Assembly (NCBI RefSeq): GCF_028641065.1 | Contig: NC_073391.1 | Location: 34,906,001-34,970,000, forward strand | Length of the DNA: 64,000 nucleotides | Source: Leucoraja erinacea | Lineage: Eukaryota | Direction: 5' to 3' | Shown: positions 2,632 to 54,780 of the stretch, piece after piece | Position numbering within the stretch: the stretch's first letter is position 1 | How the letters are laid out: each line of letters starts with the position of its first letter | Notes under the pieces: generated by a model | The model's database searches: none | The model's input: only the letters and a program-made list of their open reading frames with translations | What the model was told of the DNA's origin: nothing | Translations under genes and position numbers: made by a program

Positions 2632-3582
2632 CTGTGGACACAGAGGCAACAGGCAGAGTGCTGCGGATCAGGAGAACCAGACCCAGGGGTCACCAGCCAG
2701 CTGCCCCGGTGACTGGCCCAACCTGACCCACCTTCACAAGCCCAGCTTTGCAATGGCACCCTGCTCGAGATTATGCTCCTGAGACCTTACCAACATGGCG
2801 CTGACAATGAGACCTCAACAACATGATGCATTGCCCTGGACCCCCATCACCTGGTGCTGATCCCTTGGATCTCATCAACATGACGCTGCCTCAGAGTCCT
2901 CATTAAAATGGCGCTGATCCCACAGTCCTCATCAACGTGGCGCTGACCCCAGATATCTCATCAATACGGCTCAGCGTTGTGTTAAAGGCAGAGCTGTAGT
3001 CTATGAATAGTTTCTGTGAAAGGAGCAGAATTCGGCCATTCAGCTCACCAGGTCTACTCCGCCATTCAATCCTGGCTGATCTAACTCTCCGCCTCAACTC
3101 CATTCTTCTGCCTTCTCCCCATAACCCTTGACACCCGTACTAATCAATAGTCTATCTATCTCTGCCTTAAAAAATATCCACTGGCTTGTCCTCCACAGCC
3201 TTCCGTGGCTAGGACTTCCACAGACTTCCACAGATTCTGGCTTGTCACTTCTCATCTTCCTAAAGGAATGTGGCGTAGGTGTCTCACTTATCCAGATGGT
3301 CAGGGACTTAGCATTATCCATGGACCTGCTGTGGCGATAGAAGAACTGCAGTTGGTTAATGCTGCTTAGTAGTTGGATAACTTAATATTAACTTAATAAA
3401 CGTTATTCCCTTTATCCGGTATCTGTACGCTATGGACGGTTCGATTGTAATCATGTATAGTGTTCCCACTGGCTGGTAATGGGCGCAACAAAAATAGATT
3501 TTCACTGTATCTCGGTACACGTGACAATAAACTAAACTAAACTAAACCTAGATGGACAGAACGGTCCGAAAGCTGCCGTTAC

Positions 3583-4155
3583 CTGGGAGATGGTTCGCAG
3601 GTATCTATACATGGCCTTGGCGGGAAAGGGCGGGTGTCGGAGCAGGGCCGCGGGAGCGAGGTCTCTGCAAGGAACGCGGGCCAGGGCGGAGCGGATTTCG
3701 GCCTCCCGGTAGCCGCTCACGTTGGCGAAGCGGGCGGGCTCCACCGAGGCAGAGAAGGCGCAGACGACGCACTTGCCGTCCAGCAGAGCGACGATGATCC
3801 AAGCCGCGGGGGCGAGGGCGGCGCCCTGGAGCACGGAGAGAAGCAGGTACCTTAGCGCCTGCCCATCCCGTCCCCGTCCCCGTCCCCGTCCCGGGCTGCC
3901 CTCCGGCCGCCGAGCCTCCAGCAGTAGCAGCGCCCAGCGCCCGTTCACCATCACCCCACACAGGAAGAGAGCGACTGGCGGCAGGAGCAGGACGCCCAGC
4001 CCGTAGAGCGTGTTGTAGAGCGGCAGGCACGGGCAGCTGAATCGGTAGGAGCCGTAGAGCCGGACACCGGCCAGGGCCAAGAGAGCGCTCACCCCGTTCA
4101 TCAGCGACTCCGGGTTCGACTGCAAGTGGCGGAACGCGGCGAAAAAGCGATCCAT
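3583..4155 (-). CDS. CALHM3: Calcium homeostasis modulator, CALHM3-like, coding exon 1 (191 codons)
   Basis: MDRF..SNPESLMNG, FSCPCL.YN.LYGLG, ALLDGKCVVCAFS, ARVPC and RYLRTISQ are CALHM motifs. Exon ends CAG|GTAAC (phase 0). YGLG, LFLCG and CAFS.SV.P fit CALHM3 better than CALHM1. Confidence 0.9.
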
Positions 4156-4751
4156 GGTCCCCCCCGCACTCAGCCGGCCTCACCGACCCTTCACTGTCCT
4201 GAGTTACCGACCTAGCACTGTCCGGTTACCGACCCAGCGCCGTCCGGTCCGGCGCTGAGGAGTTACCGAGCCGGTGCTGTCTGACCTGGCGCTGTCTGTA
4301 GTCACCAACCCAGCACTGCCCGGTTTTCGGCCGAGCAGTGTCCGGTCCGGTTCTGAGGAGTTACCGAGCAGACTGTGTCTGGAGTCACAGACCAGGCGCT
4401 GTCCGCCGCACGAATGGTGCTGAAATTCCCGCACGCACTCGGCAGCACCAGGTGTGTGTGTGGTCAGGTAGACCGGGCCCCCGCTGGTACAGAAATTTGT
4501 ATTAAAGGGACCACTGTGTGCGTCTGCAGGAGGGGTGCATAGACTCTTGTATTACAAAGCGCAAGAGGCTGAGAAGTGGATTGGATACAAACAGGGAAGT
4601 AGGTGCATGAGTAGACCATTCGGCCCATTGAGCCAGCACCGCCATTCAATATGAACGTGACTGATCATCTAAAATCAGTACCTCTCTCCTGCTTTCCCCC
4701 CATATCCCCTGATTCTTTTAGCCCTAAAAGTTAAATCTAACCCTCTAGAAA

Positions 4752-13212: not shown

Positions 13213-13907
13213 CTGGGGGAGAGATGACTGTCAGTGAGCAAACGGTCCCATACGCAGAGCAGTGGCAGAGCACCAGGCACCGGCCTTCAAAACACCGGCT
13301 CAAACACCCTGTGCAACCGTAATGTAATGTATTGCCCCAACCTTTATACTCAAGTCCCTGACGGGTGAAGGGCCGCGTGAACAAAGATACCTCCCCCACC
13401 TCGCCTACCTGTGAAGCCACTCTCTGGGAAACTTGGAAGAACATGTATGAAATAAAAATAATAGCTCAGGGTCAACAGAAGCCTCTCACAAGGCACTCGA
13501 TGGCCTATCCTTACGCCAAGCAGACCACAGGATTACATGTTGCCAAGTGTGATTACTCGGTTACCGAAGGCCACGTTGGGTGTTTAAAAGAAGGAGATTT
13601 TTTGTCAAGAGTCTTTTCACAGATCCTTCATTTCTTCTTATTTAGCATCAACGATGCCAGAGAAAAGGTCGAGAGCTTCGAGTTACAAGTGGCGAATATC
13701 ATCAAACATTTGTCTTGGGTCAACAGCCAAAAAGGTAACTCACCGCCTCACTATTATCACAAGACTAATGTGGCCAACTTCTACAAATGCACCACAGAGA
13801 GCACGCTGTCAGGTGCATCACAGCTTGGTTTGGGAACAGCTCTACCCAAGACCACAAGAAGTTGCAGAGAGTTGTGGGTGTGGCCCAGACCATCACACAG
13901 ACCAGAC

Positions 13908-15517
13908 CAAAGAACTTATAGCGAAGCAAGATAGGCTACTCCTGCTAAATGCAATGGACTGACGTGTAGTACGCTATGGAGGGGATCATGGGCATTTTCC
14001 ACGCCCATTTTAGCAACCTGAGCCTACCTAACCCGACCCGACTCGCAGTGTAATCAATGTTGCGGGGCAACAGTTTGTGTGGGTCAGATTCATAAATCTG
14101 TCAGTTCAAACTTCTTGTCAAGAATAAAATTTGATTCTGGTAATTGTCTTTTTTAATGTTTTTTTTAAATCATTTCTTTTTAAATGGCTCACAAGCAGTG
14201 TTGAGTTGATTTTGTAGTAACCCGAACCGACCCGACTCGCACGGTGATTGACAGGGGGGGACTTTTTGTGCGTGATATAGGGTTAGATTCATAATTCTGT
14301 TAGTTCATAATTCTGTTGATTCTTGTTCAGGAATAAAATGTTTATAAACACACATACATGAAAATTATATAAATGTATATAACACACACAATTATATTTC
14401 TTCTAATCCAATAATGAACTTTATTTCAGACTAGACAAGGGACATTAAATAAGAAACATTATAAATAAGAAACATTGTCTTGGGGCACTCCCTCTCCCCG
14501 CTGCCCCGGGCCCCGCACTCTCTCTCCCCGCTGCCCCGGGCCCCGCACTCTCTCTCCCCGCACTCTCTCTCCTCTCTCCCGCGCTGCCCCGGGCCCCGCA
14601 CTCCCTGTCCCCGCTGCCCCGGGCCCCTCACTCCTTCTCCCCGCTGACCCGCACTCCTTCTCCCCGCTGCCCCGGGCCCCTCACTCTCTCTCCCCCCTGC
14701 CCCGGGCCCCGCACCCCCTCTCCCCGCTGCCCCGGGCCCCTCACTCTCTCTCTCCCGCACTCCCTCCCCCCGCTGCCCCGGGGCCCCGCACTCTCTCTCC
14801 CCGCTGCACCGGGCCCCGCACTCTCTCTCCCCCGCTGCCCCGGGCCCGCACTCACTCTCCCCGCTGACCCGGGCCCCGCACTCCTTCTCCCCCGCTGCCC
14901 CGGGCCCCGCACTCCCTCTCCCCGCTGCCCCGGGCCCCGCACTCCCTCCCCCCGCTGCCCCGGACCCCGCACTCTCTCTCCCCGCTGCCCCGGACCCCGC
15001 ACTCTCTCTCCCCGCTGCCCCGGGCCCCGCACTCCCTCTCCCCGCTGCCCCGGGCCCCGCACTCTCTCTCCCCGCACTCCCTCTCCCCGCTGCCCCGGAC
15101 CCCGCACTCTCTCTCCCCGCACTCTCTCTCTCCCCGTTGCCCCGGACCCCGCACTCTCTCTCCCCGCTGCCCCGGGCCCCGCACTCTCTCTCCCCGCTGC
15201 CCCGCACTCCTTCTCCCCACTGCCCCGCACTCTCTCTCCCCGCTGCCCCGCACTCCTTCTCCCCGCTGCCCCGCACTCTCTCTCCCCGCTGCCCCGGACC
15301 CCGCACTCTCTCTCCCCGCTGCCCCGGGCCCCGCACTCCTTCTCCTCGCTGCGGATCCAATCTTTGGCCGGAAGCAAGAAGGCGGGAGCAAGAAAGCGGA
15401 GCAAGATGGCGGAGTCAGGTTGCTAAAATGTGTCCTATAATCACCCATGAATCCGCCCATGAGCGTACCTCACTTTTGCGTGAGAGTAACCCATCTTGCT
15501 TCGCTATAAGATCTTTG
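13908..15517. mobile_element. Non-autonomous DNA transposon, P-superfamily-like
   Basis: 34-bp TIRs CAAAGA(A/T)CTTATAGCGAAGCAAGAT..., 8-bp TSD GACCAGAC (13900-13907, 15518-15525), subterminal inverted repeat CATTTTAGCAACCTGA; interrupts a LINE remnant. Confidence 0.85.
14483..15350. repeat. GC-rich minisatellite (~30-bp unit CCCCGCTGCCCCGGGCCCCGCACTCTCTCT) inside the transposon
   Basis: Direct tandem repeats. Confidence 0.95.
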
Positions 15518-15685
15518 GACCAGACTCCCCACCATTGACGTCATCTACACTTTTCGGAAAGCAGCCAACATAATGAAAAACCACTCTCGCCCTGGTCACT
15601 CCCCTTTCTCCCCTCTTTGTTTAGGCAGAAGAAACAAAAGCTTGAAAGCACATACCACCAGATTCAGGAACACCATCACCCCCCC

Positions 15686-17662: not shown

Positions 17663-18061
17663 AAGGGGAGGTCTTATAGAAACTTACAACAATCTTAAGG
17701 GATCGGACAGGTTAGATGCAGGAAGATTATTCCCGAGGTTGGGGAAGTCCAGAACTAGGGGGTCACAGTTTAAGGACAAGAGGGAAATCTTTTAGGACCG
17801 AGATGAGAAAATCATTTTTTACACAGAGAGTGGGGAATCTGTGGAATTCTCTGCCACAGAAGGTAGTTGAGGCCAGTTCATTGGCTATATTTAAGAGGGA
17901 GTTAGATGTGGCTCTTGTGGCTAAGGGGATCAGGGGGTATGGAGAGAAGGCAGGTATGGGATACTGAGTTGGATGGTCAGCCATGATCATATTGAATGGC
18001 GGTGCAGGCTCGAAGGGCCGAATAGCCTACTCCTGCACCTATTTTCTATGTTTCTATGTTT
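17663..18061 (+). mobile_element. CR1 LINE 3' fragment
   Basis: FFTQRV.NLWNSLP ORF2 end, 3'UTR, (TTTCTATG)n tail. Confidence 0.9.
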
Positions 18062-21000
18062 AGAAACATAGAAACATAGAAATTAGGTGCAGGAGTAGGC
18101 CATTCGGCCCTTCGAGCCTGCACCGCCATTCAATATGATCATGGCTGATCATCCAACTCAGTATCCCGTACCTGCCTTCTCTCCATACCCCCTGATCCCC
18201 TTAGCCACAAGGGCCACATCTAACTCCCTCTTAAATATAGCCAATGAAGTGGCCTCAACTACCCTCTGTGGCAGAGAGTTCCAGAGATTCACCACTCTCT
18301 GCGTGAAAAAAGTTCTTCTCATCTCGGTTTTAAAGGATTTCCCCTTTATCCTTAAGCTGTGACCCCTTGTCCTGGACTTCCCTAACATCGGGAACAATCT
18401 TCCTGCATCTAGCATGTCCAACCCCTTAAGAATTTCTATAAGTTTGTAAGTTTCTATAAGATCCCCTCTCAATTTTCTAAATTCTAGAGAGTATAAACCA
18501 AGTCTATCCAGTCTTTCTTCATAAGACAGTCCTGACATCCCAGGAACCAGTCTGGTGAACCGTCTCTGCACTCCCTCTATGGCAATAATGTCCTTCCTCA
18601 GATTTGGAGACCAAAACTGTACGCAATACTCCAGGTGTGGTCTCACCAAGACCCTGTACAACTGCAGTAGAACCTCTCTGCTCCTATACTCAAATCCTTT
18701 TGCAATGAAAGCTAACATACCATTCGCTTTCTTTACTGCCTGCTGCACCTGCATGCCTACCTTCAATGACTGGTGTACCATGACACCCAGGTCTCGCTGC
18801 ATCTCCCCCTTTCCCAATCGGCCACCATTTAGATAATAGTCTGCTTTCCTGTTTTTGCCACCAATATGGATAACCTCACGTTTATCCACATTATACTGCA
18901 TCTGCCAAACATTTGCCCACTCACCCAGCCTATCCAAGTCACCTGCAGTCTCCTAGCATCCTCCTCACAGCTAACACTGCCCCCCCAGCTTATTGTCATC
19001 CGCAAACTTGGAGATATTGCCTTCAATTCCCTCATCCAGATCATTAATATATATTGTAAATAGCTGGGGTCCCAGTACTGAGCCTTGGGGTACCCCACTA
19101 GTCACTGCCTGCCATTGTGAAAAGGACCCGTTTACTCCTACTCTTTGCCAGCCAGTTCTCTATCCACATCAATACTGAACCCCCAATGCCTTGTGCTTTA
19201 AGTTTGTATACTAATCTCTTATGTGGGACTTTGTCGAAAGCCTTCTGGAAGTCCAGATACACCACATCCACTGGTTCTCCCCTATCCACGCTACTAGTTA
19301 CATCCTCGAAAAATTCTATAAGATTCGTCAGACATGATTTACCTTTCGTAAATCCATGCTGACTTTGTCCAATGATTTCACCACTTTCCAAATGTGCTGC
19401 TATCCCATCTTTAATAACTGACTCTAGCAGTTTCCCCACTACCGATGTTAGACTAACTGGTCTGTAATTCCCCATTTTCTCTCTCCCTCCCTTCTTAAAA
19501 AGTGGGGTTACGTTTGCTACCCGCCAATCTTCAGGAACTACTCCAGAATCTAAAGAGTTTTGAAAGATTATTACTAATGCATCTATTTCACCACTATTTC
19601 TGGAGCTACTTCTTTAAGTACTCTGGGATGCAGCCTATCTGGCCCTGGGGATTTATCGGCCTTTAATCCATTCAATTTACCCAACACCACTTCCCGGCTA
19701 ACCTGGATTTCACTCAATTCCTCCAACTCCTTTGACCCGCGGTCCCCTGCTATTTCCGGCAAATTATTTATGTCTTCCTTAGTGAAGACGGAACCAAAGT
19801 AGTTATTCAATTGGTCCGCCATATCCTTGTTCCCCATGATCAACTCCCCTGTTTCTGACTGCAAGGGACCTACATTTGTTTTAACTAATCTCTTTCTTTT
19901 CACATATCTATAAAAACTTTTGCAGTCAGTTTTTATGTTCCCTGCCAGTTTTCTTTCATAATCTATTTTTCCTTTCCTAATTAAGCCCTTTGTCCTCCTC
20001 TGCTGGTCTTTGAATTTCTCCCAGTCCTCCGGTATGCTGCTTTTTCTGGCTAATTTGTACGCATCATCCTTCGCTTTGATACTATCCCTGATTTCCCTTG
20101 TTATCCATGGATGTACTACCTTCCCTGATTTATTCTTTTGCCAAACTGGGATGAACAATTTTTGTAGTTCATCCATGCAGTCTTTAAATGTCTTCCATTG
20201 CATATCCACCGTCAACCCCCTTTTAGAATTAATTGCCAGTCAATCTTGGCCAATTCACGTCTCATACCCTCAAAGTTACCTTTCTTTAAGTTCAGAACCA
20301 TTGTTTCTGAATTAACAATGTCACTCTCCATCCTAATGAAGAACTCAACCATATTATGGTCACTCTTGCCCAAGGGGGCACGTACAACAAGATTGCTAAC
20401 TAACCCTTCCTCATTACTCAATACCCAGTCTAAAATAGCCTGCTCTCTCGTTGGTTCCTCTACATGTTGATTTAGATAACTATCCCGCATACATTCCAAG
20501 AAATCCTCTTCCTCAGCACCCCTGCCAATTTGATTCACCCAATCTATATGTAGATTGAAGTCACCCATTATAACCGTTTTGCCTTTGTCGCACGCATTTC
20601 TAATTTCCTGTTTGATACGATCTCCAACCTCACTACTACTGTTAGGTGGCCTGTACACAACACCCACCAGCGTTTTCTGCCCCTTAGTGTTGTGCAGCTC
20701 TACCCATACCGATTCCACATCCTCCAAACTAATGTCCTTCCTTTCCATTGCATTAATCCCCTCTCTAATCAGTAACGCTACCCCACCTCCTTTTCCTTTC
20801 TGTCTATCCCTCCTGAATATTGAATATCCCTGGATGTTCAGCTCCCAGCCTTGGTCACCCTGGAGCCATGTCTCCGTGATCCCAACTATATCATAGTCAT
20901 TAATAGCTATCTGCACATTCAACTCATCCACCTTATTACGAATGCTCCTTGCATTGAGACACAAAGCCTTCAGGCTTGTTTTTACAACACTCTTACCCCT

Positions 21001-25099: not shown

Positions 25100-26390
25100 A
25101 AGTGTAATGAGGCATGCGCGAATGAAGACAGACCGGTGGCACTAATATCTGGGGCGATCAAGTGTTTTGAGATGTTGGTGATTACACATATCAACTCCTT
25201 CTTCAACAAGAACCTGGACCCACTACAATTTGCCCACTGCCACAATAGACCCACAGGGGGTGTGATCTCGCTAGTTCTCCACTCTTCACTGGACCACTTG
25301 GACAATAAGAACGCATCAACTGTAGCTGGCATTCAACACCATTATCTCCAAACTTATCATCAAACTCAGAGAACTGGGTCTATGTACATCTTTATGCAAC
25401 TGGATCTTCAACTTCCTCACTGGCAGACCTCAATCTGGACCAATTGGCGACAACATTTCCTCACCGGTTACTCACCACAGGGGCACCTCAAGGATCTTTG
25501 TTCAGTCATATACTCGACTGACACTATATCCATGACTGTGTAGCCAGTCTCATCTTTACATCTGCTGAAGATGCTATCGTTGTTGGACAAATAATGAATA
25601 TTATAATGGTATATGGACACACTGATCTGTTTTGTAGTTAATGCCTACTTTGTTATGCTGAAGCAAAGCAAGAATTTCATTGTCCTATCAGGAACACATG
25701 ACAATAAACTTCCTTGAATCCTGAATCTTGAATCTAATGGTGAGTCAGAGGATAGGAGGGAGATTGATATTCAATTGTGATTCAATGGTGCCAGAACAAC
25801 AATTTTGCTTTCAACATTAACGTTAGAAGGGGAAAGCCAATGAACCACGAACCTATCTTCATCGATGGGTTGGCGGTGGAGAGAGCCAACAACGTCCAGT
25901 TTCTGCAAGAGCATATCTCTGAAGATCTGTGCTGAGCCCAGCACAGCGATGCAATCAGAAAGAAAGCTCGTCAATGCTTCTGCTTTCTTAGAGGATTGAT
26001 GAAATTTGGTTTGTCCCCAAATACTCCATCAACCTTCCACATGTGTACGGTGAAGAGACACCGACTGGAACCATCACAGACTGGATGGCTCTGTACCTCA
26101 AATGCCCAGCAATGAAGATTACAGAGAGAGGTGGACACTGCCCAGATCATCACAGGTATTGACCTCCCCACCATCGAATAGATCTACAAGGGGCTCTGCT
26201 TTGATCTTCAATGGACAATGACCATGTCTGTTGTACGGACTTCAGTTTTGCACTATTATGGCTACCAAACATTATTGATTATTAATTGATTGTATTATTG
26301 ATTGTTATCCATTATATCTATCATGTTATGTTGATGTGAAGCTGCAGCAAAAATTTAATTGTTCCATTGCCATTAAATATGACTAATAAC
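25100..26390 (+). mobile_element. Degraded Rex/Babar LINE
   Basis: RPVALIS..IKCFE, LDPLQFA..HNR remnants with many disruptions. Confidence 0.75.
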
Positions 26391-31470: not shown

Positions 31471-32126
31471 AGTCCGGGGAGTTGGCCTATTGAGTCTACT
31501 CCGCCATTCAATCGTGGCTGATGTATTTTTCCCTCACAACCCCATTCTCCTGCCTTCTCCCAGAAACCTTCGACGTAACATAAACCAAATAAATCCAAAC
31601 CGAAATCAAAGCTTGATTGCAACTTTAAAGGAGATTTGCAGGGCAACTTTTTATAACAGTGGAGGGCCTGGAACGTACTGCGACGGGTGGTGGTGGAGAC
31701 GTGTTTGGGAGTCTTGTGGATTGGTGCATGATGTGCAGAGAATAGACGGAAATGGATCCGGTGCAGGGAGATAACAATTTGTCTTCCCATCCTGTTTAGC
31801 ACGGACATTGTGGGCCGAATGGCCTATTCTTGTGCAGTATTGTCCTTTGTTCTATCATTCCGAGGGAGACAATACTATGTTAAATGCTCGTGTCTTTGGT
31901 GAAGGAGCCCTGGGCACCTGGCACTGAGGTCAGAGTGAGTTTGCCCAGACGGTGTGGGATCTTCAGCCACGATCACCCTGTGGCTCAGCACTTCAAATCC
32001 CCCTCCCATCCCGAATCCGACCTTTCTGTCCCGTGCCTCCTCCATTGCCATAGTGAGCACCACCGGAAATTGGGGGAGCAGCACTTCATATTCCGCCTGG
32101 GCAGTCTGCGTCCCGGAGGCCTGAAC

Positions 32127-32164
32127 CAAAGATCTTAGAGCAGAGCTCCGCTAGAAGATCTTTG
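32127..32164. mobile_element. 38-bp remnant of the CAAAG-TIR transposon family
   Basis: CAAAGATCTT...AAGATCTTTG between perfect 8-bp TSDs GCCTGAAC. Confidence 0.85.
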
Positions 32165-32267
32165 GCCTGAACTTCTTGACTTCTCCAATTTCCGGTAGCT
32201 CTTGCTGTCTCCTCCCCTTCCTAGCTCAACCTCCTCCTCTTCCTTTCTTCTCTCCCCCACCCTGCAT

Positions 32268-32300
32268 CAAATATCTGATAGCGAAGATATAAGATCTTTG
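32268..32300. mobile_element. 33-bp remnant of the CAAAG-TIR transposon family
   Basis: CAAATATCTGATAGCGAAG...TATAAGATCTTTG between perfect 8-bp TSDs CCCTGCAT. Confidence 0.85.
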
Positions 32301-32808
32301 CCCTGCATCAGTCTGAAGAAGGGTTTCGGCCAGAAACGTTGCCTATTTCCTTCGCTCCATGGATGCTGTCGCACCCGCTGAGTTTCTCCAACAATTTTGT
32401 CTATCTTCAGCCACTCTGTTCATTCACGTCTGAGGTAAACAGGTGCCGGGGGAGGGAGCCGGAGTTTCTGGGAATCGGGCAGGAGGCTGGATCGTTGGAG
32501 AATCGGTCTAACCAGGACTAACTGGAGGGGCTGAATGGTCAGTTCCTGATTCGCTGCCGGCCCGGACAGTGCACCTCGTGGCCTTGCAATTCGTATCCCC
32601 CCTCCCCGGGCCCCCCCCCCCCCCCCCTCCCAACCCGCTTCATCCACGCCTCTACCGTGTATCTCCCGCTCTGTATCCCACGGCCCCTCTCCCTCGCCTT
32701 GACCCCCCTCTCCCCCGGGCAGTCCGTGCCCCACGCCTCCTCTTCCCCCGTCCACCGACCCACCCACTCCGTACCCCACGCCCCATCCAGTCCCACCCCG
32801 CCCCGTAC

Positions 32809-32947
32809 CGGGGGTGAAGTGGAGCGGCAGCGCCACGTTGCCGCTGTCCGTGCGGCGGAGCAGGTTTTGACCGGCGGTGAGCGCCGTCAGCAGCTGGTGG
32901 CCCAGACACGTGCCCCACACCGGGAAATAGTCGCCCCGGTCACCGGC
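32809..32947 (-). CDS. GGH: GGH-like copy B, exon 6 (GDYFPVWGTCLG)
   Basis: 139 nt, AG/GT flanks; catalytic Cys. Confidence 0.95.
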
Positions 32948-47879: not shown

Positions 47880-49827
47880 GTGAAAAGAAAGAGATTAGTT
47901 AAAACAAAATGTAGGTCCCTTGCAGTCAGAAACAGGTGAGTTGATCATGGGGAACAAGGATATGGCGGACCAATTGAATAACTACTTTGGTTCCGTCTTC
48001 ACTAAGGAAGACATAAATAATTTGCCGGAAATAGCAGGGGACCGCGGGTCAAAGGAGTTGGAGGAATTGAGTGAAATCCAGGTTAGCCGGGAAGTGGTGT
48101 TGGGTAAATTGAATGGATTAACGGCCGATAAATCCCCAGGGCCAGATAGGCTGCATCCCAGAGTACTTAAGGAAGTAGCTCCAGAAATAGTGGATGCATT
48201 AGTAATAATCTTTCAAAACTCTTTAGATTCTGGAGTAGTTCCTGAAGATTGGCGGGTAGCAAACGTAACCCCACTTTTTAAGAAGGGAGGGAGAGAGAAA
48301 AAGGGGAATTACAGACCAGTTAGTTTAACATCGGTAGTGGGGAAACTGCTAGAGTCAGTTATTAAAGATGGGATAGCAGCACATTTGGAAAGTGGTGAAA
48401 TCATTGGACAAAGTCAGCATGGATTTACGAAAGGTAAATCATGTCTGACGAATCTTATAGAATTTTTCGAGGATGTAACTGGTAGCGTGGATAGGGGAGA
48501 ACCAGTGGATGTGGTGTATCTGGACTTCCAGAAGGCTTTCGACAAGGTCCCACATAAGAGATTAGTATACAAACTTAAAGCACACGGCATTGGGGGTTCA
48601 GTATTGATGTGGATAGAGAACTGGCTGGCAAACAGGAAGCAAAGAGTAGGAGTAAACGGGTACTTTTCACAATGGCAGGCAGTGACTAGTGGGGTACCGC
48701 AAGGCTCAGTGCTGGGACCCCAGCTATTTACAATATATATTAATGATCTGGATGAGGGAATTGAAGGCAATATCTCCAGGTTTGCGGATGACACTAAGCT
48801 GGGGGGCAGTGTTAGCTGTGAGGAGGATGCTAGGAGACTGCAAGGTGACTTGGATAGGCTGGGTGAGTGGGCAAATGTTTGGCAGATGCAGTATAATGTG
48901 GATAAATGTGAGGTTATCCATTTTGGTGGCAATAACGGGAAAGCAGACTATTATCTAAATGGTGGCCGATTGGGAAAGGGGGAGATGCAGCGAGACCTGG
49001 GTGTCATGGTACACCAGTCATTGAAGGTAGGCATGCAGGTGCAGCAGGCAGTAAAGAAAGCGAATGGTATGTTAGCTTTCATTGCAAAAGGATTTGAGTA
49101 TAGGAGCAGGGAGGTTCTACTGCAGGTTACACAAAAAAAGCTGGAGAAACTCAGCGGGTGCAGCAGCATCTATGGAGCGAAGGAAATAGGCAACGTTTCG
49201 GGCCGAAACCCTTCTTCAGACTGGTTCTACTGCAGTTGTACAGGGTCTTGGTGAGACCACACCTGGAGTATTGCGTACAGTTTTGGTCTCCAAATCTGAG
49301 GAAGGACATTATTGCCATAGAGGGAGTGCAGAGACGGTTCACCAGACTGATTCCTGGGATGTCAGGACTGTCTTATGAAGAAAGACTGGATAGACTTGGT
49401 TTATACTCTCTAGAATTTAGGAGATTGAGAGGGGATCTTATAGAAACTTACAAAATTCTTAAGGAGTTGGACAGGCTAGATGCAGGAAGATTGTTCCCGA
49501 TGTTAGGGAAGTCCAGGACAAGGGGTCACAGCTTAAGGATAAGGGGGAAATCCTTTAAAACCTAGATGAGAATAACTTTTTTCACACAGAGAGTGGTGAA
49601 TCTCTGGAACTCTCTGCCACAGAGGGTAGTTGAGGCCAGTTCATTGGCTATATTTAAGAGGGAGTTAGATGTGGCCCTTGTGGCTAAGGGGATCAGAGGG
49701 TATGGAGAGAAGGCAGGTACGGGATACTGAGTTGGATGATCAGCCATGATCATATTGAATGGCGGTGCAGGCTCGAAGGGCCGAATGGCCTACTCCTGCA
49801 CCTAATTTCTATGTTTCTATGTTTCTA
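47880..49827 (+). mobile_element. Young 5'-truncated CR1 LINE with intact RT core, nested in the 3'UTR of an older minus-strand CR1
   Basis: ORF 47920-49254 ([33 protein letters not shown]); tail present. Confidence 0.95.
49126..49222 (-). mobile_element. 97-bp Penelope-type terminal unit with hammerhead motif, inserted in the CR1
   Basis: 13-bp TSD GGTTCTACTGCAG; CTGAAGA-A-GGGT-TTCG-GCCC-GAAA-CGTT. Confidence 0.85.
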
Positions 49828-53220: not shown

Positions 53221-54780
53221 ATGCCAGCTGGACTGGTCACCGTCTGGCTGCTGGCGAGTGCCCTGCTGAGCGAGCCCCCGCCACAGTGCCAGGGCCCGGG
53301 GAGGATGGAGGAGCGGGCAGCCCAGCTGCAGGCACAGATGCGGCGGTTGGAGCGGGAGCTAGCGGAGGCGGCGATGGCTTCTGGCAAGGATCAACAGGAG
53401 GAGGAGGAAGAGAAGGAGGAGAGGGGGGACTGGAGGCGGTGGAGCGCACTGCCTCTGGCTGGCCTACTGTTGCTCCTGCTAGTACTGTGGGCCTGTCCCC
53501 GGGCTGTGAGGCTGGCGGGTGGAGTGGGGAGCGTCCCACATGTACCCCCGGCCCCACTGCCCGACCCCCAGGCTCTGGCCTGCTTCTACGAGCGCAGCGT
53601 GAGGCTTCCGGCTGACGAGGTGTCCAGGATCCGTGAGCTGGTGGAGGGCTTTGCTGATGACCTGCTGGAGGCCGTGCGGAGTGTGTGTGACCGGGAGCTC
53701 GACATGGAGCTGGAGGAGAGCATTGGCGTCGGCAGCCTGTACGAGAACTGGCGGCTGGACAGGCCGCTGGCTTGTGACCTACTGGTGCCCTTCAGCCCGC
53801 CTGAACCTTACCGCTTCCAGGCCGACCTCCTGCCTCCGGCCAGCCACAGGCCCGAGTGCCGGGCTTATGGGACTATCCGAGTGCTAGGCCCGGGACCCGG
53901 CGCCTGCCTGTGCGGGGACACACAGCAGGCCCGGGACATGCTGTGTCTGGTGCATGGCCAGCAAGGGCTGGTCTGCTGCCCTGACCTGTTGTGGGCCCCC
54001 ACCGCACCCTTCCTGTCATGGAGCTCGGTCATGCGCTGGTTCCAGGCCACCCTGACCAAGGCCTGGGCCCGCATCTCCCACAAGTACGACTTTGAGCTGT
54101 GCTTCCAGGATCTGGAGTGCCCAGGATCCCTTCGGATCCGATTCCGCCCAGGCAGGACCGTGCTCTTCCACCTCTGCCCGGTCGTGCAGTTCGATGGCTC
54201 CGACATGTACCTGATCCCAGGTCAAGGCCTACCCAGACCCGAGTGGGATACAAGCCGGGGCCTACTCGGGCCTGACCAGGACACAGCCTGGGTCCTCAGC
54301 TCTGCCGTCTACGAGAAGCGTTTCCTGGCCTGGGCAGCCAAGCGGTTACCCTCTGGCCCATGCCACCTGGCCTGCCTGCAGGTCGCCGCCTTCCTGCACC
54401 AGAAGCAGTGCCGGCTGAGTGGGCCGAGCGGCCTGTGCCACTACCACCTGAAGACAGCCCTGCTGCACCTGCTAGCCCGCCTGCCCCCAGAGGCCTGGCA
54501 CCGCTCCTGCTTGCGGGCCCGGCTCCACGACCTGCTGGCCTTCCTGCAGCGAGCCGTTCAGAGTGGCCGCCTCGACCACTTCATCCTGGGTAGCAGGCCG
54601 GCCCTGCCCGAGCTAGGCATCCCGGCCTGCCTGCGTTCAGCCCAGCCTCCCAACCTACTGGCGGGGCTGGTTGCCCACAGCCAGCTGTTGTGCCGGGCTC
54701 TGTACACGTTGGCAGAGATGCGGAGGAACGCGGCAGCCCTGGTCCGTGAGTATGGCCCGCACGACCCCCAGGTCCCCTGA
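53221..54780 (+). CDS. ITPRIP: Inositol 1,4,5-trisphosphate receptor-interacting protein (Mab-21 family), 519 aa, single coding exon
   Basis: Signal peptide, coiled coil, hydrophobic segment, then FYER..RELVEGF.DDLLEA.RS.C, IGV.S.YENW..DRPL.C, PPEPYRF, DMLCL.HG, HKYDF.L, YHLKTALLHLL. Acceptor ccgcag| at 53208; AATAAA near 55118. Confidence 0.95.
   Translation: MPAGLVTVWLLASALLSEPPPQCQGPGRMEERAAQLQAQMRRLERELAEAAMASGKDQQEEEEEKEERGDWRRWSALPLAGLLLLLLVLWACPRAVRLAGGVGSVPHVPPAPLPDPQALACFYERSVRLPADEVSRIRELVEGFADDLLEAVRSVCDRELDMELEESIGVGSLYENWRLDRPLACDLLVPFSPPEPYRFQADLLPPASHRPECRAYGTIRVLGPGPGACLCGDTQQARDMLCLVHGQQGLVCCPDLLWAPTAPFLSWSSVMRWFQATLTKAWARISHKYDFELCFQDLECPGSLRIRFRPGRTVLFHLCPVVQFDGSDMYLIPGQGLPRPEWDTSRGLLGPDQDTAWVLSSAVYEKRFLAWAAKRLPSGPCHLACLQVAAFLHQKQCRLSGPSGLCHYHLKTALLHLLARLPPEAWHRSCLRARLHDLLAFLQRAVQSGRLDHFILGSRPALPELGIPACLRSAQPPNLLAGLVAHSQLLCRALYTLAEMRRNAAALVREYGPHDPQVP

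Follow-up and report, generated by a model that had tools for sequence, protein, structure and literature searches.

Genomic setting of the locus

The 64,000-nucleotide stretch of Leucoraja erinacea DNA analyzed here (the window) contains a CALHM family gene, an exon of gamma-glutamyl hydrolase and the single-exon gene ITPRIP (Table 1). In keeping with a skate source, the ITPRIP protein belongs to a 90%-identity cluster of 27 members, of which the two that are named come from Amblyraja radiata and Rhinoraja longicauda. Two short remnants of transposon ends, 38 and 33 bp long, lie close together, probably in the intron that follows the gamma-glutamyl hydrolase exon; the next exon was not located. 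Both interrupt a 5'-truncated retroelement fragment (the host fragment) that is bounded by a perfect 12-bp duplication. One frame of the host fragment matched 61 proteins in a full-library protein search, the only search to identify the end of its ORF; Pfam, PDB, Atlas and word-index protein searches did not. In the best relative (P0016, 75% identity), an RVT_1 domain (5.6e-19) is accompanied by a GIY-YIG match that is weak and falls short of the Pfam cut-off. Ten of the 61 relatives were scanned, of which one gave RVT_1 and four gave GIY-YIG matches, again below the Pfam cut-off. On the strength of these domains in its relatives, the host fragment is likely Penelope-like. An Rfam search over 31800-32600 returned nothing at threshold and two weak matches; the 3' end of the host fragment has what we take to be a hammerhead-like look.

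Paralogs of the host fragment elsewhere in the window are uninterrupted by the remnants. The target of remnant 1 is present as a single copy in two of these paralogs, and that of remnant 2 as a single copy in the closer one. Immediately after the duplication of remnant 1, at 32173-32175, the window is 2 bases longer than the paralogs. The net insertion at remnant 1 is 48 bp, in frame with the end of the host ORF, and a stop falls three codons into the insert. Among other repeats in the window, two LINE-like copies (18061-19882 and 47902-49827) are inverted relative to each other, some 28 kb apart, and are 97-99% identical in pieces, as in a young family. An inverted repeat with 303-bp arms (17759-18366, 93%, 2 bases between the arms) also lies in a LINE-like region.

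Table 1. Features of the window. TIR, terminal inverted repeat; fractions are identical positions over positions compared.
Feature	Position	Strand	Remarks
CALHM family gene	3535-4179	-	
Non-autonomous element, 1,610 bp	13908-15517		8-bp duplications at 13900-13907 and 15518-15525, GACCAGAC, 8/8
Left TIR, 34 bp	13908-13941	+	31/34 positions agree with right TIR
Left subterminal inverted repeat, 16 bp	14006-14021	+	Exact match to 15415-15430
Internal copy of TIR positions 13-27, G at 17	15395-15409	+	14/15 match
Right subterminal inverted repeat, 16 bp	15415-15430	-	Exact match to 14006-14021
Right TIR, 34 bp	15484-15517	-	31/34 agreement with left TIR
Left duplication of host fragment, 12 bp	31959-31970		12/12 identical to 32403-32414
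Host fragment: 5'-truncated, probably Penelope-like retroelement; end of GIY-YIG-type ORF and 3' region	31971-32402	+	
Remnant 1, left target-site duplication GCCTGAAC	32119-32126		8/8 identical to 32165-32172
Remnant 1, two TIR ends head to head, 38 bp	32127-32164		19+19, or 20+20 with common GC
Remnant 1, right target-site duplication GCCTGAAC	32165-32172		8/8; edge also in organisms A and B
Remnant 2, left target-site duplication CCCTGCAT	32260-32267		8/8 identical to 32301-32308
Remnant 2, TIR ends, 33 bp	32268-32300		19+1 filler+13, or 20+15 sharing GC
Remnant 2, right target-site duplication CCCTGCAT	32301-32308		8/8
Right duplication of host fragment, 12 bp	32403-32414		12/12; contig spanning the locus in organism D continues from 32403
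Gamma-glutamyl hydrolase exon	32809-32947	-	PDB match E 1.7e-13, residues 110-162 of 312; splice signals
ITPRIP, single-exon gene	53221-54780	+	

The parent transposon family

The family from which the remnants derive is represented in the window by a non-autonomous element. Its 16-bp subterminal inverted repeats sit some 90-100 bp in from the ends; the longest word shared in 2000 shuffles was 14. When the window was searched for TIR positions 13-27 at two or fewer mismatches, only the two TIRs and the internal copy at 15395-15409 were recovered, and this copy may serve as a transposase site. A tandem array of some three 14-bp units, similar to TIR 13-27, occupies 15369-15412, just inside the right subterminal repeat, and its units are likewise candidate transposase sites. 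More than half of the 1.6-kb element is a GC-rich minisatellite (14485-15352, 868 bp, period 30, about 31 copies). No Pfam match at the cut-off was obtained for the element in the 18 of 36 listed frames that were scanned, the rest being mostly flanks or minisatellite. Four CxxHF matches in the window included no convincing THAP motif, and no transposase for the TIR family was found there.

An 8-bp target-site duplication accompanies all three insertions (the element and both remnants). The P target motif GTCCGGAC is matched by the three duplications at 6, 5 and 3 of 8 positions (P ~0.0005 against window 8-mers, n = 3), and the hobo (hAT) motif GTNCGNAC also fits them (P 0.0035, n = 3). The element termini are CA and also fit YARNG, which the accessible parts of PMC3014272 and PMC2820524 give for hAT and for P, respectively. 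The parent element is thus assigned to either P or hAT, with a leaning to P. The TIR word occurred nowhere in open PubMed Central and bioRxiv text. In the titles and abstract openings listed from those two open sources, which leave out subscription journals, neither natural P-type scars in a vertebrate genome nor this skate family were reported; the family may be catalogued in Repbase or Dfam.

Structure of the two remnants

Coordinates, letters, insert lengths and duplications of both remnants were as originally predicted from the sequence, with intact and perfect 8-bp duplications at each site. Both inserts consist of outer TIR ends only, from the 34-bp TIR of the element at 13908-15517. The prediction was correct in this respect and fell short in the extent of the arms, which it put at the outer ~13-19 bp and which actually reach 19-20 bases. 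Searching the whole window for inserts of 8-150 bp that end in TIR sequence and lie between 8-bp repeats recovered exactly two, namely the two remnants; the same scan of 30 block-shuffled windows gave none with a perfect-duplication match and three with one imperfect match each. The remnants are real, TIR-only inserts between intact duplications. Six weaker TIR-like words in the window were rejected for want of a duplication, among them the 12-bp word at 25489-25500, which differs by a single base from the shortest TIR fusion predicted and likely arose by chance. Matches to the TIR pattern in five metagenome and six viral contigs were also taken as chance, as none of the 11 had a second end or BLAST similarity to the window.

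Remnant 1, which folds as a hairpin (z -3.87), has arms of 18-20 bases each and a total of 38, so that 18+20, 19+19 and 20+18 all fit. With arms of 18-20 nt it requires three substitutions and no filler, equivalent to two 20-nt arms sharing GC, whereas limiting each arm to 17 requires three substitutions and a 4-nt filler. Scored against the A17 TIR of the window, the corresponding totals are five changes for long arms and nine under the 17-nt limit. The four would-be filler bases match what both arms would have at TIR positions 18-19 (a 1-in-256 coincidence for random filler), and this 4-mer was not found in the tails or in the 28 flanking bases on either side. The rule of 17-nt overhangs on which the original prediction relied therefore fails for remnant 1, since the filler that it demands is simply the continuation of the TIR and arms of 19-20 nt demand none. 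Remnant 2 has a left arm of 19-20 bases and a right arm of 13-15; read as 20+15 sharing GC, it requires a changed junction base. Under the 17-nt limit (17+1+15) it takes four changes rather than three, a nearly equal fit. The case against 17 nt thus rests on remnant 1, and remnant 2 does not discriminate.

The junction is a 2-nt GC microhomology in remnant 1 and either GC or a 1-nt filler in remnant 2. TIR position 17 is G in both arms of remnant 1 and A in remnant 2. This G is likely a natural variant, because the internal copy at 15395-15409 carries it too. The best-fit differences from the window TIR number 3/38 in remnant 1 and 3/33 in remnant 2; in one alignment, 5/40 and 4/35 arm positions differ, respectively. 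Such differences outnumber what the surrounding perfect duplications suggest, above all in remnant 2, whose divergence from the TIR exceeds the prediction from its apparent youth (P 0.007-0.06).

Age and order of the insertions

Four of 24 sequencing runs were compared over 31780-32600; none of them contained as much as half of the words sampled. Organisms C and D each have one contig that spans the locus without the host fragment, at 89-93% identity, joining 31970 to 32423 in organism C and 31958 to 32403 in organism D. As these organisms are without the host fragment, it and its inserts are younger than the split from C and D. With its perfect 12-bp duplication, the host fragment is well suited as a presence/absence marker for comparing skates.

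Both edges of insertion 1 occur in organism A (99-100% identity), and the right edge occurs in organism B (97-98% identity). In both organisms the contigs break off at a GATC 8 bp into the TIR and are compatible with a scar or a full element. Judged by the right edge, insertion 1 is therefore shared with organism B in one form or the other. At site 2, the contig of organism B tracks the window to two bases beyond the left duplication and then departs for 10 letters. The TIR and an unoccupied site both carry these two extra bases; organism B thus probably has no insertion at site 2, as judged from this one contig, and insertion 2 is likely younger than insertion 1.

Contigs break 8 bp into each TIR end in runs X1 and X3. 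These breaks were considered as structure, a reading that was rejected because they fall exactly on GATC and one loose end doubles GATC, which points to a library effect. The ratios of depth over insert 1 to that in neighboring host bins were 0.83 and 0.49 in X1, 0.086 and 0.015 in X3, and no more than 0.024 and 0.005 in X9 and X15, figures that do not represent copy number because the libraries appear GATC-cut, which would enrich TIR junctions, and scars, TIR ends and host copies are mixed. High depth was confined to organisms A and B, where it is a hint at most. In X1, six contigs continue past the right end of insert 1 into different flanking sequence, and a consensus built from 24 loose ends (agreement 0.47) places the last 8 letters of the TIR directly before 32311 in other host copies. 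These loose ends hint that the 3' region of the host family is a repeated insertion target. One joint ties the right end of insert 1 to 32312.

The order of site 1 followed by site 2 is compatible with a local hop. With uniform sites, the chance of two of three insertions falling within 95 bp is 0.009, a value computed after the fact. Against a local hop we count the difference at position 17 (A in remnant 2 versus G in remnant 1) and the hint that other host copies were hit.

Comparison with known transposons

Published systems are compared here on the basis of the accessible parts of the cited papers. The donor products of Drosophila P (PMC2895639, PMC7776569) show the same TIR-only insert, 8-bp duplications, 2-nt microhomology or filler and length of 30-38 bp. 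They differ in having arms of at most 17 bases, as against 19-20 in skate, and in being laboratory products rather than a natural vertebrate fossil. Table 1 of PMC2895639 covers 66 isolates by our tally from Rad51-null flies; gap repair, which is excluded there, is possible in skate, and the comparison is limited to that extent. Junctions of 30-38 bp make up 28/66; 14 isolates share one 30-bp join and five share one 32-bp join, both through 2-nt microhomologies at or near the tail tips. Inserts longer than 34 bp (14/66) arise through filler, and none of the 66 has TIR bases beyond 17 (PMC2895639). The table also includes forms with a full tail, an A and a short tail, like remnant 2. The original reading of the remnants as excision footprints holds up as the best one, and their anatomy matches these P donor-site junctions (PMC2895639 Table 1); the P membership that went with it is putative, as the termini, the 8-bp duplication and the target preference also fit hAT. 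Because the arms exceeded the 17-nt limit when this was tested, the remnants are described as resembling a P donor scar and are not filed as one. The 17-nt stagger has been called an atypical feature of Drosophila P transposase (PMC7776569, PMC10983969).

The layout of the parent family, with CA termini, an 8-bp duplication and subterminal inverted repeats, is like that of Drosophila P and zebrafish Pdre2. Known P TIRs are 13-32 bp long, and that of the skate family is 34 bp. The CA termini, the 8-bp duplication and the occurrence of non-autonomous copies are likewise shared with Pdre2/zfTHAP9 of zebrafish (PMC10983969) and Izanagi of medaka (PMC2820524), both of which have a THAP or transposase link; their TIRs are of other sequence and measure 13 and 27 bp, respectively. 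In the accessible parts of these two papers, neither TIR-retaining scars nor a cut position is given for either element. Excision by zfTHAP9 in fly cells leaves larger flanking deletions, not tidy scars (PMC10983969), and this counts against reading the remnants as tidy P-like scars. The hAT elements hobo, Ac and Tol2 share the 8-bp duplication, the YARNG termini (PMC3014272) and a GTN..NAC-type target motif (PMC3276498). They form hairpins on the flanks and leave flank-derived scars (PMC3878927), whereas the skate inserts are TIR-derived and their flanks intact. Tc1/mariner elements also leave a scar of overhang sequence between duplications (PMC3878927); the overhang is 2-3 nt and the duplication TA, compared with ~20 nt and 8 bp in skate. 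Given the flank hairpins of hAT and the 2-3-base residue of Tc1/mariner, neither yields such a scar by end joining alone.

Origin of the remnants

The remnants are likely excision scars. We favor, with somewhat more than even confidence, the explanation that they are donor-site scars left by end joining after a P-like cut whose stagger was ~20 nt. A longer element would once have stood at each site, and its excision would have left a 3' tail of the first ~20 TIR bases on each flank. At site 1 the tails could then have paired through their terminal self-complementary GC (20+20-2 = 38). At site 2 an intact tail could have annealed to the other tail through GC at its positions 14-15 (20+15-2 = 33), or joining might have added one filler base (19+1+13). 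We infer the former full elements, the transposase-made breaks, the length of the stagger and the superfamily. When overhang lengths of 10-34 were compared, 20 alone produced both 33 and 38, and these are the sole intact-end microhomology products of a 20-nt overhang. Depending on the allowed range, some overhang fits 56/3192, 38/930 or 6/156 length pairs (1.8-4.1%). The fit of a 20-nt overhang to both lengths is suggestive, for a value fitted after the lengths were seen and a sample of two scars.

The main alternative is that the same arms arose by aborted gap repair, in which any cut-and-paste excision (by P with 17-nt tails, by hAT or by another transposase) is followed by the recopying of a few TIR bases from the sister chromatid before the ends are joined. 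Gap-repair tracts are usually long and uneven. This route would explain arms longer than 17 together with intact duplications and requires no new stagger length; it could also have started from hAT, which the termini fit as well as P. Interrupted gap repair is moreover an accepted origin of deleted elements (PMC3014272, PMC3878927). We nevertheless consider it unlikely here, as it gives no reason for three of the four arms to end at 19-20 of a 34-bp TIR, and the TIR microhomologies allow 27 different product lengths between 11 and 60 bp, others of which gap repair could have used. It is quite improbable that the 33-38-bp units were themselves mobilized as an amplified mini-MITE and inserted as such with fresh duplications. 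The high depth over insert 1 in organisms A and B would suit such a unit, as would the six X1 contigs leading into other flanks and the failure to find a full element at either site (contigs of A and B end 8 bp inside the TIR, and C and D are without the host). The depth signal, however, comes from apparently GATC-cut libraries, the two remnants are unlike each other in length, in junction and at TIR position 17, and neither has the subterminal repeats or the remainder of the candidate binding motif at TIR 13-27. An identical junction had been proposed as the mark of a mini-MITE; this is unsafe, since 14/66 independent Drosophila repair events gave one same 30-bp junction (PMC2895639).

Loss independent of transposase would have the element fold through its TIRs during replication and the interior skipped between short repeats of the stem. 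The nearly precise excision of Tn10 is a precedent for such slippage, the TIRs can make a 34-bp stem, and the junctions lie at palindromic words, which are direct repeats across the stem. The best repeat, however, is the 8-bp palindrome at TIR positions 3-10, the longest, which would give a 12-bp product, and the next, of 4 bp, would give one of 22 bp; the observed joins use at most 2 bp and neither remnant uses the 8-bp palindrome. The lone 12-bp look-alike in the window (25489-25500) is without a duplication, and slippage is very improbable as the origin of the remnants. The least probable of the explanations is a canonical 17-nt P cut with filler at both junctions. Remnant 2 can be accommodated in this way (17+1+15, four changes), and filler is common in fly junctions (18/66 isolates, PMC2895639). 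The filler of remnant 1 would have to reproduce TIR 18-19 of both arms, bases that are absent from the tails and the 28-base flanks.

Implications

If the ~20-nt stagger is true, a natural archive shows a vertebrate family using a P-type long stagger of different length, and the stagger could be obtained without biochemistry by tallying scar lengths in a single skate assembly. The chemistry of the cut would also help to classify an orphan non-autonomous family. We put forward tentatively, at somewhat less than even confidence, the broader proposal that skates hold many scars of a P-like transposase with a ~20-nt stagger, and that the superfamily has conserved the long stagger in vertebrate germ lines, with a length that varies and a position that can be read from genome sequence alone. 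If the scar lengths lack a cut-off, the remnants would be an ordinary pair of extreme internal deletions. The TIR of zebrafish THAP9, at 13 bp, is shorter than 17.
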